From contig CAVSZB010000004.1 of the NCBI GenBank assembly GCA_963732385.1, positions 96,001 through 160,000 of the forward strand: a DNA stretch of 64,000 nucleotides, in the 5' to 3' direction. Both the position numbers and the translations under genes were made by a program. Positions 27,600 to 34,936 of the stretch are shown piece by piece. The first letter of the stretch is position 1. Each line of letters starts with the position of its first letter. The stretch is from an uncultured bacterium. GTDB lineage: Bacteria > Krumholzibacteriota > Krumholzibacteriia > LZORAL124-64-63. The notes under the pieces were generated by a model. That model searched no databases, was not told the DNA's origin, and worked only from the letters and a program-made list of their open reading frames with translations.

Positions 27600-27631
27600 G
27601 CCGCGCCCGCGGGTGACGGGGTCCTGCCCGA

Positions 27632-27660
27632 TTGTCTCCCGCGCAGACGTCTGTTATAAT
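27632..27660 (+). promoter_or_regulatory. Sigma70 promoter with extended -10
   Basis: TTGTCT-N17-TATAAT with TG at the extended -10 position. Confidence 0.7.
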
Positions 27661-27720
27661 CATGCGAGGACGGCCACATCCCGTGCGGGCGCGCAGGCGT
27701 CGGCGCGGAAAGGAGACGCT

Positions 27721-28512
27721 TTGGAGAGCCATCCGAACCCGCGTGATGCGTGGGTGAAAGACGCCGAACGCTGGATCTGCCAGATCCACGGTGTGAGGCA
27801 GTGCAAGGTCGATCTCGACGGCCAGGGAGAGGTGAGCGGGGTCCATGTCGTGGCCGGGATGGAGCGCGAGGCGCGCCATGTAGTGCGCGATGTGGAGGGG
27901 TTGCTCAAGGCCCGTCTCGGTCTGAGTGTCTTCTATAAGAAAATCGGTGTTGTCCAAATTGTGGACGGCGAGCAGGACGAGGCGATCGAGGAGGAGGAAT
28001 CGGAGGAGGAGAGTGGGGCGGTTGCTGCGATCGCCGGCGTCCAGCGTCCCGACCTGCCGCTGGAGGCCGTGCTGCTCGAAGAGGCGGTGCCGCCGCGGAT
28101 CCAGCTCGGCGGAATCGGCCTGCTGGCCACGGACCGGACGGTCAAGGCGGAGGTTGAACTGCGGGCGGGGCTGCTCGAAGCCCGGGGTCAGCAGGAGGGG
28201 GTCAATACCAACGGGAGTGACCTCGTCCTGGTGGCCCGCGCGACCGTCGATGCCGTTCGGCAGTTGCTGATCGATCCCATCACCCTGACGCTCGCCGATC
28301 TGCAGTTGACAGAAGTGGCGGGCGAGACCGTAATCCTCGCGGCGGTCGAATTGACGGAAGGACGGAGATCAGAGCGCCTCTACGGCACCTGCTCCGGCCT
28401 GCCGAGCCGTCCCCAGGGCGTTGTCTACGCCGTCCTGGACGCGCTGAACCGACGGGTTTCGTTGCTCAGTTTCCGAAACGCCGACAAAGGGGGCGTTGAA
28501 CTGACAAGCTGA
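27721..28512 (+). CDS. Hypothetical protein; C-terminus resembles the LeuA allosteric/dimerisation domain
   Basis: AAGGAG SD with TTG start; N-domain VHVVA...VVRDVE; acidic linker; C-terminal AEVEL...ARATVDAV...AVLDALNRR. Confidence 0.7.
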   Translation: MESHPNPRDAWVKDAERWICQIHGVRQCKVDLDGQGEVSGVHVVAGMEREARHVVRDVEGLLKARLGLSVFYKKIGVVQIVDGEQDEAIEEEESEEESGAVAAIAGVQRPDLPLEAVLLEEAVPPRIQLGGIGLLATDRTVKAEVELRAGLLEARGQQEGVNTNGSDLVLVARATVDAVRQLLIDPITLTLADLQLTEVAGETVILAAVELTEGRRSERLYGTCSGLPSRPQGVVYAVLDALNRRVSLLSFRNADKGGVELTS

Positions 28513-28637
28513 TTCCATGGCGGAACCGGCAACCGGTACGGGTAACCCTTGGAAGAGCGGAGCATCCGAGCGAAGCGGTCTCTGCCGTCAGGAGCGGTCT
28601 GACGGTAAATCCCTGGTTCTAAGGGAGGTGAGGCACA

Positions 28638-28682
28638 ATGCTTCTGTGGATCATGGCGATCTTTACCAAGTGGGAGTGGTAG
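28638..28682 (+). CDS. Unannotated 14-aa Trp-rich hydrophobic peptide MLLWIMAIFTKWEW
   Basis: Strong SD AAGGGAGGTG at 28621-28630, 7 nt before ATG; clean ORF ending in TAG. Confidence 0.65.
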   Translation: MLLWIMAIFTKWEW

Positions 28683-28812
28683 ACCTTGAGTCCGGGAGCC
28701 GGTTCCGCTTAATCTGCCGGGGTATCTGCCGATACCAGATCTGCGCCGCGCCAGGCGTGCCGCGCGGGCCGTGGCCGGCATCGCGCGAGGACTCCAAAGC
28801 GGAAAGACCACG

Positions 28813-30170
28813 GTGGCAAACGACCGCCCACGCAAGCACCGCTGGCTGTTCCACCTCTTCTACGGCCTGACCGTTGTCGCCGCTGTCTGTCTGATCGCCA
28901 TGCTGCTGCGCGACGGGCTGCCCCACGACCTGCGCTGGTTGGATGTGGGTGTTTTCTTCGGCTTCCTGCTGCTGACCGACACTAAACTGGCCGAACTGCA
29001 GGTGGGTGGCGGTCGTCTGCTCTCCTCGAAGTCCGATCAGCATGTGCATCATCGCTTTGTTCGGCCCTGCGATCACGGCAGTAATCGAGGCGCTCTCGTC
29101 ACTCACGCGCGGTTTTGTTCTGCACCGCATGCCGCCGCAGAAGACGATCTTCAATGCGGCCATGCTGTCGCTGTCCGCTGGAGCGGCAGGTTTGATCTAC
29201 CACGTGCTGCCTTGGCACGATCGTTTCGATGGGCCGCTCTATCTCTTCCCTTTGCTGGTGGCGATCCTTGTCTATTCGGTCTGCAACCAGATTCTTCTGA
29301 CCGTGGTGCTTGCCTTTCGACCAGAAGTTGCCGGCACGGGAGATCTATCGCCAGAACTTCGGTTGGTCGCATTTGCGGGTTCCGGTGGATGCACCGTTCG
29401 CGGCCATCGTTATCCTGCTCTACCTGCAGGCTGGCGTGTGGACGCTGCTGCTATACCTGTTCCCGGTGCTCGTACTCTTCCAGGCCAATCGAGTTACTCA
29501 GGAGATGAAACGCGCCCACGTCCACTCGATTGCTGCCCTTACGACCGCGCTCGAGGAGAAGGAGAACGACCGCTACACGCGGGGGCACAGCTATCGGGTG
29601 TCGATGTATGCGCTGCGCATCGGTCGCGCGCTGGGTCTCTCGCCGCGGCGGCTGGAGATGCTCGAGTATGGCGGGTTGCTGCACGACATCGGGAAGCTTG
29701 CCATCACGAACGACATCCTGCTCAAGCCGGGCAAGCTCACGGCGGACGAGCGGGCCGAGCAGGCCCGCCACCCCGAGATCGGTGACGACATCGTCCGGCA
29801 GATCAAGTTCCTGCACGAGGTGGCCGACATGGTGCGGCACCATCACGAACGTCCCGACGGCAAGGGCTATCCCGACGGTCTGAGCACCGATGCGCTCACG
29901 CTCGAGGCGCGCATCCTGGGGGTCTGCGACGCATTCGACGCCATGACGACCGACCGGCCGTATCGGCCGGCCCGCAGTCTCGAGTTCGCCATGGAGGAGC
30001 TGGTCCGCTGGCGCGGCACGCAGTTCGACGTGCGGGTCGTCGACGCCGTGCTCGAACTGTACCGACATGGGGAGTTCGGGGTCATCCGCGATACCGAGGG
30101 GATGCCGCTCGAGATCACCAGCACGCCAGGGCGCCGCCGGCTGGCGCTCCCCGAGAGCGTGCCGGTCTGA
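28813..30170 (+). pseudogene. Membrane-anchored HD-GYP phosphodiesterase, interrupted by two +1 frameshifts (~29033, ~29316); sequencing error or pseudogene
   Basis: Three consecutive frames give a continuous multi-TM domain followed by YTRGHS...LLHDIGK...HHERPDGKGYPDGL...DAFDAMTTDRPYR. Confidence 0.8.
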
Positions 30171-31194: not shown

Positions 31195-31506
31195 TCTGTA
31201 GCGTGGCGTCCTGCCGCGGACCTGCGTCATCTTCCGGATACACCGCGTCAACCCGTTCCCATGTTTGATGATCCCCTCAAGCTGCGTTCAGCCGCCTCCG
31301 GTGGATGACGGCTGGCGGGGACGGTGCGTCGATCCTGGCCACTCTTCGGCCAGGTTTGTCTGTCGTCTGCCGGGCCGGGTGGTCGTCGGAGGGGCGTTTT
31401 CCACTTGGCTGTGGACAAGCGTGACGCGCGGTTCGGTTCCTGCTGCATCGGCTCCGTGTCCAGGTTGCGGGGCGAGACGGGGAGGCACCGGTCGAAGGGA
31501 TCCGGC

Positions 31507-33270
31507 ATGGCGTGGGCCTTCTGGGCGGAGGAAATCCGCGGTTTTCCGCTGCTCGGGCTGGGGGCCGGCTCCGCGCTCTGGGTGGTGAGGCGCGACGGGG
31601 AGGGGGAGCGTACCGGGCTGCGCCTGCTGTACGCGCACGCCTGGCCCCACCCGCCGGTCGGCTGGACGCCCGGCCCGGGCCGGGGAGCGGGCGTGGTGGA
31701 CGCTCCGGTGGCCATTCCGCCGCCCCCCCTGCAACCGCTGTGGCGGGCGGTACAGGAGGGGATCGGCGCGGAACGGCCGTGGCGCAGCGCCGGCGAGGCG
31801 CCGGTCGGGGGACGACGCCTGCCGGGGCGCGTCGGCCGGCCGGTCCTCTGGACCGAACCGTTGCGCCGGGGGACGGAGGTGACAGGGGCCTTCGCTCTGG
31901 GGTTCGATGCCACACCTCCGTGGGATGAGGCGGTGCGGCTGTGGGGGGCGCGCTTTGCCGCGCGCGTCGCCCCCCTGCTCGACTGCCTGCCGCCCTGGCC
32001 GGCCACGGCGCGCCTGGCCGTCACTGGGGCGGAGGCGCAACTGACCCTTTTCCCGCTGCCGTCGCCGGGGGGGGCGGCCGCCCTGCCGCGGCGGTCCCGC
32101 GCCAGCGCCGGCGGTCTGCCCCTGCCGCGCCCGGTCCCGGTGCCAGGAGTTCCGGGGGCGGTCGGGGTCTCGGCCGAATTCCTGGCCTGCTGCGACACGG
32201 CGCTCGCCGTGGCGGCGGCCGACGTGAACGTCCTCATGTATGGCGAGAGCGGGACCGGCAAGGAGATCCTGGCGCGGGCCGTCCATCTGGCGAGCTCGCG
32301 CCGGGACCGGGCCTTCCTGGGGGAGAACTGCGCCGCCCTGCCCGAGGGTCTGCTCGAGAGCGAGCTGTTCGGACACCGGGCCGGCGCGTTCACGGGGGCC
32401 GCGCAGGAAAAGGCCGGCCTGCTCGAAGCCGCCAGCGGGGGCACCTTCTTCCTGGACGAGATCGGCGACATGCCTCTGGCGCTGCAGATCAAACTGCTGA
32501 GGGTGATGCAGGAGCAGCAGGTGCGGCGGATCGGGGAGCTGGAAAGCCGTCCGGTGAACCTGCGCTGGATCGCGGCCACGCACAAGGATCTCAACGCGGA
32601 GATCGCCGTCGGGCGCTTCCGGCTCGACCTGTTCTACCGCCTGCACGTCGTCCGCATCACCATTCCGCCGCTGCGGCTCCGGCCCGAGGACGTGCCGCAC
32701 CTGCTGGCGTACTTCCTGCGGCGCCACGGAGGCGAGTCGGCGGGCCGGCGCATCCAGGAGACGGCGCTGGCCGCGCTTCAGGCGCACAGCTGGCCCGGCA
32801 ACGCGCGCGAGTTGGAAAACGAGGCGCGGCGCCTGCTTGCGCTGCACGGCGAGGCGCCGGTCATCCGCGTCGAGCATCTCTCGCCGGAGGTGCGTGGTGC
32901 GGCGATCCGGCAGGTCAGCGGGGACGATCTGGGACTGCTGCGCCCGCTCAGCGAGGCTGCGGTGTTGCTCGAACGTCATCTCATCCGCAAGGCGGTGGAG
33001 GCGTGCGCGGGGCGCAAGGCCGCCGCGGCGCGGCGGCTTGGCCTGTCGCGGCAGGGGCTGTACCGCAAGATCCGCCGGTACGGTCTGTTTGACCTGCTGC
33101 CGGGCGCGGTGGGGGAGGCGGCGGGGATGGCGAACAGGGCGCTGGCCGACGCTGACGGCGATGCGGACGGGGAGCCGGCGGCCGCCATCGCCGCCGCCGG
33201 CTTCAGCCCTGATGGATCGGCTACTCGAACAGCACCATTGTCTTTGTCGAAGTCTGTCCGGTCGCCGTGA
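31507..33270 (+). CDS. Sigma54-dependent enhancer-binding protein (AAA+, Fis-type HTH); start uncertain
   Basis: [63 protein letters not shown]. Confidence 0.9.
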
Positions 33271-34936
33271 GACGGTAGAAGTAGACGCCGGCAGCCACGC
33301 GACGGCCGCCTTCATCGGCGCCGTTCCAGGTGACGAAGTGCTCGCCGGCGGCGTGCTCTCCGCGCGCGAGGCGGCGCACCAGGCGCCCCGCCAGATCGTA
33401 CACCGTCAAGTCGGCTGGTCCCGCGACCGGCAGCGAGAAGCGGATGGTCGTGGCGCCGCCGAACGGGTTGGGGGAGTTCAGGCCGAGCGTGGCGGTCATG
33501 ACGCCGGACCGCGGATCGGGCTGAGCCGCGGTCACGTGCGCGAACCAGCCGATATCCTCGAACAGTTCGCGCGCCAGGTCGACATCCTGCGTCAGGTCGA
33601 GGTTGATGGCCGGTTCCATGAGCAGGTTCGGCGTGGCCGAGACATCCCAGTGCGAGATCGAGGAGCCCGCTACGAAGGGATTCGGCGCGTACATCAGGGG
33701 GTGTCCCTGATCGTCGCCGCCGGAGAGCCGGACGGGGTCGAGGGCAATCCTGACCTGTACTCCTGACGCGAGCTGGGCCCGGATCAGGTTGCCGTCCGCC
33801 TGGGTCAAGCTGACGACCGGGATGACGATCGTGGGATCGCTCCCGCCCATGCCGGGCGGCGTGGATGAGATCGCGTTGTCGACGATGATCACGCCGATGG
33901 CGCCGGCGTTCTGGGCGATGAGCACCTTGCTCGTGTAGGTGCAGGTCCCGCGGTCGATCAGCGCGATGTTGCCGGCCATGGCCGCGCCGTTGACAAGCGC
34001 CGTGCAGGCATCGCTGGTGGTGCCGACGCCGTCGTTCGCCTGCACGACCAGACCCGCCACGCCGGGGTCGTTCAGCGGTGCGCCAAAGGCGGCCGTGCCG
34101 GCCAGATAGTCGCCGGCGATCGCGGCGGGGCTGTCCACGAACAGCGTCGGTCGCGGTGAAAGCGTGCCGCGAGCCCGCTGGTGCACGGCCGGGCCGTCCC
34201 ACACCAGATTGCCGGTGTTGATGGCGGAGGCTGCGCGCTCGACGGCGCTCATCTGGTTCCAGTGCAGACCGGTCGTTTTGTCGAGCAGGTACTGATCGAA
34301 GACGGAGGGGAAGCTGCCCAGGTAGCCTCCGGTCGATCCGTTCGTGGTCGTGCTGAAGCCAAGGCCGTGCCCCAACTCGTGCAGAACGACCGCCAGCAGG
34401 TCAATGAGCACCCCTTCGTTGCCGTCGAACCCGTAGTACCAGCCGCTGCCGCTGAGGCAGGTCGGCTGGCCCAGGTTGGCGTTGAAGCGCGCGGTGATGT
34501 CGTAGCCGGCCGGATCCATGTCGTAGCCGGCCCGCTGGTTGCCGAGCGCCACGTGGTACCAGGCGCCGGGAAACTCCGCCCCGGTGAAGTCGCGGAACAC
34601 CGATATCGGCCCGGCGCTGCCCAGGACCGCGCTGGTGGCGGTGCAGGTGAGGGGATCGAAGGCGGCCTGCACGAGGATTGGCACGTGGCCCGGCAGGATG
34701 GCGCCCCAGATGTTGGCCGCGGTCTGGAAGACGTTGAGGCGCTGCTGGCCGATGGTGACGCCGGGGTTGCCGCCGACGGGGGCTGCCGGCGTGGGGTCGT
34801 TGAACCCCTCCCCGGCCCCGTCGATGTTGATGATCGTGATCGTGACGGCGAACGCGGCCGAGGCCGTCAGGGCGAGTCCGAAGGCCAAAGCAACGGCCAG
34901 CGTTCGTCGGCTGGAAGCGCGATGGAGAGCATGCAT
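33221..34936 (-). CDS. Secreted zinc metalloprotease with PA domain and FlgD-Ig-like C-terminus
   Basis: Signal peptide; HELGHGLGF zincin motif; [10 protein letters not shown]...AQNAGA PA domain; SSISHWD; NSPNPF...[10 protein letters not shown]. Confidence 0.85.

Follow-up and report, generated by a model that had tools for sequence, protein, structure and literature searches.

A micropeptide gene in a conserved RNA cassette ahead of MASE9-HD-GYP genes: a candidate modulator of cyclic di-GMP turnover

The locus and its genes

We analysed a stretch of 64,000 nucleotides (hereafter the window; contig CAVSZB010000004.1, positions 96,001 to 160,000) from an uncultured bacterium of the phylum Krumholzibacteriota. 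Between pfkB on the upstream side and purM on the downstream side, it holds a gene for a 263-aa protein with a LeuA-regulatory-like domain, a 14-codon micropeptide gene enclosed in a folded RNA cassette, and a gene for a membrane HD-GYP phosphodiesterase with a MASE9 domain. The features of this block are as follows:

27632..27660, + strand: sigma70-type promoter-like site for the 263-aa gene (TTGTCT-N17-TATAAT, extended -10 TG, 10/12)
27721..28512, + strand: gene for the 263-aa protein, TTG start
28519..28530, + strand: 5' arm of the enclosing long-range stem, identified by covariation
28556..28597, + strand: four AGCGR pentamer repeats, starting at 28556, 28569, 28574 and 28593
28583-28590 paired with 28600-28607, + strand: hairpin with the last AGCGR repeat in its loop
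28621..28630, + strand: Shine-Dalgarno sequence AAGGGAGGTG of the micropeptide gene, GGAGGTG invariant in 26/26, with upstream RNA predicted to mask it in part
28638..28682, + strand: micropeptide gene of 14 codons, MLLWIMAIFTKWEW, encoding an amphipathic leader and a K/R-aromatic-E-W tail
28698..28709, + strand: 3' arm of the enclosing long-range stem, identified by covariation
28709..28735, + strand: sigma28 (FliA)-like promoter TTAA-N15-GCCGATAC, directly past the 3' arm of the stem and ahead of the HD-GYP gene
28813..30170, + strand: MASE9-HD-GYP phosphodiesterase gene, split across three frames, catalytic motifs intact

The original prediction, made from the window alone, had described the promoter, the 263-aa reading frame, the tiny open reading frame (ORF) with its Shine-Dalgarno sequence and the pfkB and purM flanks, all of which are present. 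The multi-transmembrane HD-GYP gene that it reported is likewise there, though spread over three frames in this assembly rather than forming a single ORF. The covarying stem with its AGCGR repeats, the FliA-like promoter, the fold prediction for the membrane domain and two extra bases in the enzyme gene are additions of the present analysis. The promoter-like site ahead of the 263-aa gene is unique within 6 kb (shuffles 0.4 +/- 0.7), and a site scoring at least 8/12 also lies upstream in 13 of the 15 relatives scanned, a count that carries no shuffle control.

Conservation and distribution of the micropeptide gene

Conservation of the 14-codon ORF is at the peptide level, and judging by its substitution pattern it is a predicted gene. 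Peptide length is 14 in all 26 distinct sequences, which end in TAA or TAG, and the proportion of nonsynonymous differences (pN) is 0.24 against 0.60 for synonymous ones (pS) over the whole gene (pN/pS 0.41), with values of 0.16 and 0.68 in the last five codons. In the consensus, a hydrophobic, amphipathic leader precedes K/R-W/F/Y-E-W. A conserved short ORF between homologous gene pairs, which the original prediction had implied, is thus present at the peptide level, while the WxW proposed there as the defining motif does not hold, given that position 12 may be W, F or Y and that only 23 of 67 peptides from other phyla end in W. A loose Shine-Dalgarno-ATG-Trp-stop pattern was uninformative, matching in 149 of 151 genomes. 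One genome (G008) has two copies of the micropeptide gene with MASE9 (L004 on C19 and L090 on C8), whose peptides differ only at position 12, F versus W; since each copy is at or close to the end of a contig, either duplication or an assembly effect is possible.

A family survey covered 30 loci with the upstream protein, the window's own genome included. The 14-codon peptide occurs in 21 of these, starting 112-203 nt past the stop of the upstream gene, and the other nine have neither the peptide nor MASE9-HD-GYP, with purM directly next; a genome-wide MASE9 profile search gave no match in the genera of those nine. Among 23 loci from other families of the class, eight have a peptide of 11-20 aa built in the same manner (seven complete and W-terminal, one cut by Ns), 11 have MASE9-HD-GYP alone and four have neither. 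On a tree of 50 phylum rows, a quick version built on the upstream protein and with long branches, peptide and MASE9 were jointly lost two to three times and the cassette alone was lost twice; the number of loss events is small because kin are not independent. No peptide was found in the absence of MASE9 among the 50 rows, and these comparisons demonstrate a one-way dependence in Krumholzibacteriota, in which the peptide is never seen without MASE9.

Beyond this phylum, a tight alignment of 14 distant upstream proteins yielded the best 80 of 544 confirmed loci, taken from named genomes and chosen by the upstream protein only; they sample Bacillota, Actinomycetota (mostly Coriobacteriia), Sumerlaeota and Armatimonadota, and seven of them end too soon, leaving 73 testable. 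By script, 67 of the 73 have the micropeptide gene, 68 have MASE9/HD-GYP, 66 have both and four have neither, and the two rows scored as MASE9 only (L142, L167) show a peptide by eye. Records from Natranaerobius and Subdoligranulum share the gene order, the peptide being unannotated in the annotated one. Carriers of the module that are in culture include Desulfosporosinus, Thermosediminibacter, Symbiobacterium and Natranaerobius. The synteny on which the original prediction depended is therefore borne out, the three-gene order being kept across five phyla, and on this comparative evidence the unit of LeuA-regulatory-like gene, micropeptide and MASE9-HD-GYP is a cross-phylum module.

The MASE9-HD-GYP enzyme

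By domain and motifs the enzyme is an HD-GYP phosphodiesterase (HD_5 at E 1e-35; HD, HHE..DG.GYP and DAM..DR.Y present), for which hydrolysis of cyclic di-GMP (c-di-GMP) is predicted. Two genomes of the same genus (G001 and G002) hold an intact ORF of 451 aa, relative to which the window's gene has one additional base around 29035 and another around 29318; the latter is also missing from a DNA contig of a related strain. An assembly error is somewhat more likely than a pseudogene, because the catalytic piece is 96% identical to that of G001 with all motifs intact, and because frame-shifting indels relative to G001 affect 7 of 108 compared genes, three of them within one 3-kb stretch; in these counts for the window's genome (G000) and G001 the fault may lie in either genome, and some are poorly aligned ends. 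Recent inactivation of the gene is less likely; it would fit the clean state of its neighbours argS, pfkB, the upstream gene and purM, none of which has such a frame-shifting indel relative to G001. At G000:C7:1420000-1424000, three adjacent genes have single-base indels relative to G001, which suggests a locally poor consensus in one assembly, and a Natranaerobius record (L101:4432-5723) also has its MASE9-HD-GYP gene as two coding sequences.

The original prediction had proposed a comparison of the membrane domain with MASE-type Pfam families, and the domain proves to be MASE9 (PF20972), which all 24 members match at E<=0.01; the intact G001 copy scores 32.3 bits against a cut-off of 24.3, and the window's own fragment reaches E 0.016. 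A model of the domain with a predicted local distance difference test score (pLDDT) of 89 has as its top 14 structural matches exclusively S-components from transporters of the energy-coupling factor (ECF) type, at Z 12.9 to 8.7, with unrelated rows at or below 6.1. The best of these, a NikM-type S-component, superposes at Z 12.9 with a root-mean-square deviation (rmsd) of 3.5 over 183 aligned residues, although helical bundles can reach similar Z values and the Foldseek E for MASE9 against an S-component is 0.04. We consequently predict an S-component fold with a six-helix core for the MASE9 membrane domain.

The orientation of this core appears unusual. Averaged over 77 sequences, lysines and arginines number 1.2, 3.3 and 2.5 in loops L1, L3 and L5 (mapped from the aligned ranges of the S-component superposition), against 0.7, 0.1, 1.0 and 0.2 in the alternate loops, and both termini are basic. 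In S-components, it is L1, L3 and L5 that seal the pocket at its outer face. Because the same loops are basic in MASE9, its termini and L1, L3 and L5 would be cytoplasmic and its core inverted with respect to S-components. The standard orientation, with these loops extracellular, is not supported by the count of basic residues, which places them inside. In S-components and 5TMR receptors, as described in the main text of PMC11109136, the ligand cavity opens extracellularly. Polar residues conserved in MASE9 are D/E56, N114 (77/77) and N158 (99%). For its ligand, binding within the membrane has been suggested in the main text of its defining paper (10.1101/2021.11.05.467447).

A potential, if unlikely, explanation for the conserved peptide is an exported pheromone, whose precursor would be secreted, trimmed to a tail of 4-5 residues (e.g. 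after GGA) and sensed by MASE9 on the outside, which would put c-di-GMP under quorum control; DUF5317 would serve in processing or export. The peptides of other phyla, 19-39 aa long and typically M-K/R-hydrophobic-LAGGA-x-aromatic-K/R-hydrophobic, fit this idea in their basic N-terminus and hydrophobic core, followed by GG[AG] (59/67) and a variable aromatic or basic tail (W within the last five residues in 37/67, terminal W in 23/67). Of 63 loci extracted, 45 were scanned, and in 25 of these DUF5317 is encoded by the next gene; it also matches, together with MASE9, in the same two of 14 control genomes, Thermus thermophilus and Thermotoga maritima. The pheromone idea is at odds with the apparently cytoplasmic pocket loops and with the Krumholzibacteriota peptides, which at 11-20 aa and a median uncharged run of 7 fall below a signal-length core. 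Nor was DUF5317 found in any of 41 Krumholzibacteriota genomes, or in the genomes of L135 and L149, both of which have long peptides, so that a tie between DUF5317 and long peptides is not clean; a literature search on DUF5317 gave no match. At L149, L154 and L164 (e.g. L149:3200-3316) the peptides are variants of 38-39 aa whose tail is rich in proline, and next come MASE9-HD-GYP and another, short HD-GYP gene.

The RNA cassette and the promoter of the enzyme gene

The micropeptide gene is enclosed by a 12-bp stem (28519-28530/28698-28709), in which 9 of 12 pairs vary on both sides and 96% of cells are paired, a value that falls to 31-46% in slid controls; the shuffles used for the stem ignore the relatedness of loci. 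AGCGR repeats number 117 in 33 peptide loci against 18.5 after shuffling, and 2 in 13 peptide-less MASE9 loci, the motif having been defined from the peptide loci themselves. At least two repeats occur in all 67 peptide loci of other phyla. A closing stem of at least 6 pairs surrounds the last repeat in 59 of 102 cases and the first in 11 of 102. Since the commonest spacing of the repeats is 5 nt while the gaps between blocks vary, we read them as RNA rather than as a DNA operator. Folded as a single sequence, the cassette does not stand out (z -1.1); the case for the RNA rests on covariation.

No Rfam family reached its gathering score (best E in the window 2; no match in 8 loci). A cross-phylum RNA model without base pairs found one copy in G000 and matched in 17 of 61 genomes, each match at or beside a known locus, although its blanks carry little weight because it missed several known cassettes. 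Two candidate readers of the repeats were rejected. TRAP (PF02081) is unmatched in G000, a genome 95.8% complete, whereas the Bacillus subtilis control matches. An invariant GGA is the mark of CsrA/Rsm target RNAs; CsrA is present, but 188 of 387 AGCG sites continue with GGA and 61 with GAA. RNAalifold pairs the repeat at 28574-28578 with the start-codon region 28639-28643, but two of the five pairs are invariant, so this is not evidence. Alternative folds are suggested at L105:4600-4850 and further Coriobacteriia cassettes, where bases just past the Shine-Dalgarno sequence offer the 3' side of the inner hairpin another partner; many of these loci have two tandem membrane HD genes.

Directly past the stem lies the FliA-like promoter. 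The sigma28 consensus is TAAA-N15-GCCGATAA-like, and 16 of 33 phylum cassettes have a site of this kind at most 110 nt from the peptide stop, against 0.54 expected, all 16 being among the 27 of the window's family; none of the 69 cassettes of other phyla has one. As G000 encodes FliA (above cut-off) and flagellins, the locus combines a sigma28-like site with FliA in the same genome, as expected of a FliA regulon member, and in the window's family the HD-GYP gene probably belongs to the flagellar class, with transcription of its own that does not depend on the cassette. G000 has seven more strict sigma28-like sites (8 listed), which amount to a draft FliA regulon; one of them lies some 11 kb away from the flagellin/CsrA cluster of C7. 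When families are compared by flagellin and MASE9-HD-GYP, flagellin occurs in 1 of 10 genomes of f3, f4, f7 and f8, the families in which MASE9-HD-GYP is retained but the peptide is absent, in 35 of 36 of f1, 5 of 5 of f5 and 2 of 4 of f6, a comparison based on few independent events.

These features bear on a second and distinctly improbable alternative, namely that short ORF and folded RNA form a cis-acting leader, an attenuator or upstream-ORF switch for HD-GYP expression in which the peptide has no role in trans. Consistent with this are the covarying stem, the T-rich tails that often lie downstream of it, a ribosome-binding site (RBS) costlier to open than in shuffles (29 of 33 phylum cassettes, 62 of 69 from other phyla) and the position of the cassette, always ahead of the HD-GYP gene. 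However, the amphipathic character is conserved at the amino-acid level over the full peptide, there is no conserved run of regulatory codons, the distance to the HD-GYP start varies widely, and a FliA-like promoter past the cassette would bypass such a leader in 16 of 27 family loci. Given this promoter, the peptide is argued to act as a product; the leader idea is stronger in other phyla, because the promoter is absent from all 69 loci there. A short hydrophobic peptide, a long-range closing stem and a sequestered RBS also resemble type I toxin mRNAs, and one could imagine a toxin-like membrane peptide that has nothing to do with the signalling genes beside it and is kept silent by 5'-3' mRNA pairing. 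We consider this extremely improbable in view of its single copy, its fixed operon position across five phyla, its inheritance with MASE9 and the lack of an antitoxin match in Rfam.

The upstream protein

The 263-aa protein consists of an N-terminal alpha-beta-beta-alpha-beta domain, an acidic linker and a C-terminal domain of the LeuA/citramalate synthase (CMS) regulatory type. The LeuA-like call of the original prediction is correct for the latter, which matches LeuA at E 1.6e-4, shows the (beta-beta-beta-alpha)2 fold of the LeuA/CMS regulatory domain and superposes on that of CMS at Z 9.2 (rmsd 3.0, 108 aligned); it does not extend to the N-terminal part, a different alpha/beta domain. Pfam LeuA_dimer matches 9 of 50 distant relatives, while the window's own protein matches no family in Pfam or NCBIfam, and a profile of the distant relatives has no sequence match in PDB. 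Names from the Atlas are confined to an automatic 'LeuA allosteric' or hypothetical, and those relatives of the 263-aa protein that bear a name belong to Candidatus Krumholzibacteriia. The protein is not a 2-isopropylmalate synthase, since a 75-residue alpha/beta domain stands where the catalytic TIM barrel would be. It was detected in 56 of 61 genomes, and a profile of 38 such proteins retrieves 857 clusters at E<=1e-10.

The N-terminal domain resembles the C-terminal domain of cation diffusion facilitators (CDF-CTD), type II KH and ring-building domains at Z about 8, a common arrangement, and carries invariant Arg, Lys and His residues. One might suppose that this protein is itself the receptor of the peptide, with AGCGR bound by its basic N-terminal domain and the tail, or else an amino acid, by its LeuA-type domain, in an autoregulatory loop with which HD-GYP is merely co-regulated. 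LeuA regulatory domains do bind amino acids in the structures matched, at least two repeats accompany all 67 other-phylum peptides, at loci picked by that very protein, and the N-terminal basic residues are conserved. We nevertheless regard such a loop as very unlikely, because the peptide is lost with MASE9 whereas the upstream protein stays in all 22 cassette-less rows of 50, because the sequence has no GxxG KH loop and because a single copy of the cassette was found in G000. Nor does the suggestion in the original prediction that the upstream protein is a partner of the peptide system extend to an obligate one, as 12 of those 22 Krumholzibacteriota rows are also without MASE9. In cassette-less family members (L015, L019-L026) the upstream protein tends to be longer, with 274-351 aa matched against mostly 250-300, through a longer linker.

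A proposed role for the peptide

Comparative analysis establishes the gene order, the selection on the peptide, the covariation of the RNA stem and the one-way dependence on MASE9. Our favoured interpretation, to which we give about an even chance, sees the peptide as a co-encoded modulator of MASE9 that binds it from the cytoplasm, within a four-part module of LeuA-regulatory-like gene, folded RNA cassette, micropeptide gene and MASE9-HD-GYP gene. The amphipathic peptide would lie on the inner leaflet and insert its basic-aromatic tail between D/E56, N114 and N158, likely docking into the predicted S-component-type pocket from the cytoplasm. NikM's own N-terminus inserts into its pocket; a T. 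maritima peptide signal, TM0504, was also considered and dropped, the literature giving no match. Docking would tune c-di-GMP breakdown, more likely dampening it, an inhibitory rather than activating role being suggested because peptide-less lineages keep an intact enzyme. Control would be separate, the enzyme being expressed from the FliA-like promoter and peptide synthesis gated by the RBS-sequestering RNA, and the upstream protein may, in the weakest step, read the cassette RNA through its AGCGR repeats. In the window's family, given the apparent link of the enzyme to the flagellar sigma factor, the module may set when cells change between motile and attached life.

The idea of the original prediction that the peptide is a ligand or modulator of the HD-GYP sensor is plausible, yet co-folding lends it weak support, and from a distant relative. 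The MASE9 domain of L149, folded with its own 38-aa peptide (a stand-in from near a Chthonomonadia locus, and not the window's 14-aa peptide), scored 0.44 against 0.01 for the best control, with at least 62% of contacts shared between runs and a partner pLDDT of at least 54. Of the benchmark pairs, 116 of 157 solved and 2 of 215 mismatched ones reached the mark, and scores up to 0.60 comprise only 18 of the solved pairs and both passing mismatches.

Several observations weigh against a cytoplasmic modulator. The co-folded peptide is an atypical relative without the Trp tail, and its pass is a weak one of a kind that is often wrong. MASE9-HD-GYP occurs without an adjacent peptide in the 11 of 23 other-family loci mentioned above (two losses on the tree), a search for a relocated cassette in 5 near-complete genomes without the peptide was negative, with a pattern that recovers 3 of 5 known cassettes, and D56, N114 and N158 are kept in all three peptide-less MASE9 rows checked. 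One locus of another phylum (L120) has the peptide without a detected MASE9. The other-phylum peptides resemble signal peptides (median uncharged run 19), which fits export better. Covariation between tail and pocket was not above that of random columns for hand-picked pocket columns (12 of 60 as high). Finally, as a direct key to the RBS the repeats do no better than chance, since with them held unpaired the RBS is no easier to open than with random blocks so held (11.0 vs 10.5 and 8.8 vs 9.1 kcal/mol).

A broader version is possible but doubtful: an ancient cross-phylum peptide circuit, in which the LeuA-like protein binds AGCGR and gates the micropeptide gene, and the peptide is the ligand of MASE9, an inside-out S-component receptor joined to a phosphodiesterase. 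If true, this would constitute a new signalling unit with a new RNA-binding protein, RNA motif and receptor orientation. The modulator interpretation itself, if true, would add peptide control to c-di-GMP turnover, extend the S-component fold to inward-facing receptors, and give a function to the unnamed LeuA-like family and to an RNA motif absent from Rfam.

Neighbouring genes and RNA-derived contigs

After purM, the window holds by eye a sigma54-type activator-like ORF (31324-33270, + strand) and an ORF resembling a secreted PA-domain peptidase with a FlgD-like C-terminus (33221-34936, - strand). Contigs from RNA runs of related strains (two runs of one study) cover 27608-29028, as a single contig, and 27608-28620 plus 28591-28916. 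We do not count them as evidence of expression, as they extend upstream past the promoter, have no silent-stretch control and may reflect DNA carry-over, and contig depth in these runs is unable to rank genes.

Comparison with known systems

No published description of the module was found in a literature search limited mostly to papers available without subscription. Several classical systems were considered and set aside. Systems of the RRNPP type have an adjacent gene for a tetratricopeptide-repeat regulator, and here the neighbours are pfkB, the 263-aa gene, MASE9-HD-GYP and purM. Agr peptides have a conserved Cys core with a charged C-terminal tail behind it, and the 28 distinct phylum peptides have neither a Cys nor a follower (AgrB was not searched). 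A Trp attenuator or TnaC-type leader, with one or more invariant regulatory Trp codons before Trp-related genes, does not fit a position 12 of W, F or Y, a terminal W in a minority elsewhere (23/67) and HD-GYP as the downstream gene. ComS/ComR, SHP/Rgg, Phr/Rap and AgrD pheromones do share with the micropeptide a hydrophobic or amphipathic leader, a short aromatic C-terminal tail and an adjoining signalling gene; unlike them, the locus has no adjacent RRNPP regulator or histidine kinase, the peptide has no thiolactone Cys, and no processing gene was found in the phylum. In MgrB/SafA-PhoQ and AcrZ-AcrB a tiny hydrophobic product likewise tunes a membrane protein, as proposed here, but our putative target is a c-di-GMP phosphodiesterase, 14 aa are too short to span the membrane, and the peptide has its own repeat-bearing RNA cassette. 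By analogy, then, the module would work like small-protein modulators of membrane sensors, and it resembles short peptide pheromones.

The CD1980.2 family of Clostridioides difficile also comprises small membrane-associated proteins tied to c-di-GMP, there via an RNA leader; they are longer (helix 4 spans residues 40-57), stand under known c-di-GMP riboswitches and act downstream (PMC13724677), whereas the present cassette has no Rfam match and its peptide is linked to the degrading enzyme. With S-component-fold receptors (the 5TMR-LYT kinases BtsS/YpdA; PMC11109136) and NikM/CbiM S-components, MASE9 shares the predicted six-helix core, an extra N-terminal helix and, in the receptors, a fused signalling output. 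It differs in one more C-terminal helix, in an apparently inverted core with a cytoplasmic pocket, and in a proposed ligand that is a co-encoded peptide rather than a metabolite; the main text of PMC11109136 mentions neither 'MASE' nor 'HD-GYP'. The window's enzyme is itself a member of the MASE9-HD-GYP phosphodiesterases, alongside T. maritima TM1467 and Streptomyces venezuelae HdgA (10.1101/2021.11.05.467447). MASE9 is a widespread membrane sensor for which the main text of that paper gives no ligand, and likewise no micropeptide gene, RNA cassette or upstream partner, the word 'peptide' being absent from it (10.1101/2021.11.05.467447). The present locus offers a concrete candidate ligand for MASE9 in the co-encoded peptide, and the same module occurs in cultured Bacillota.

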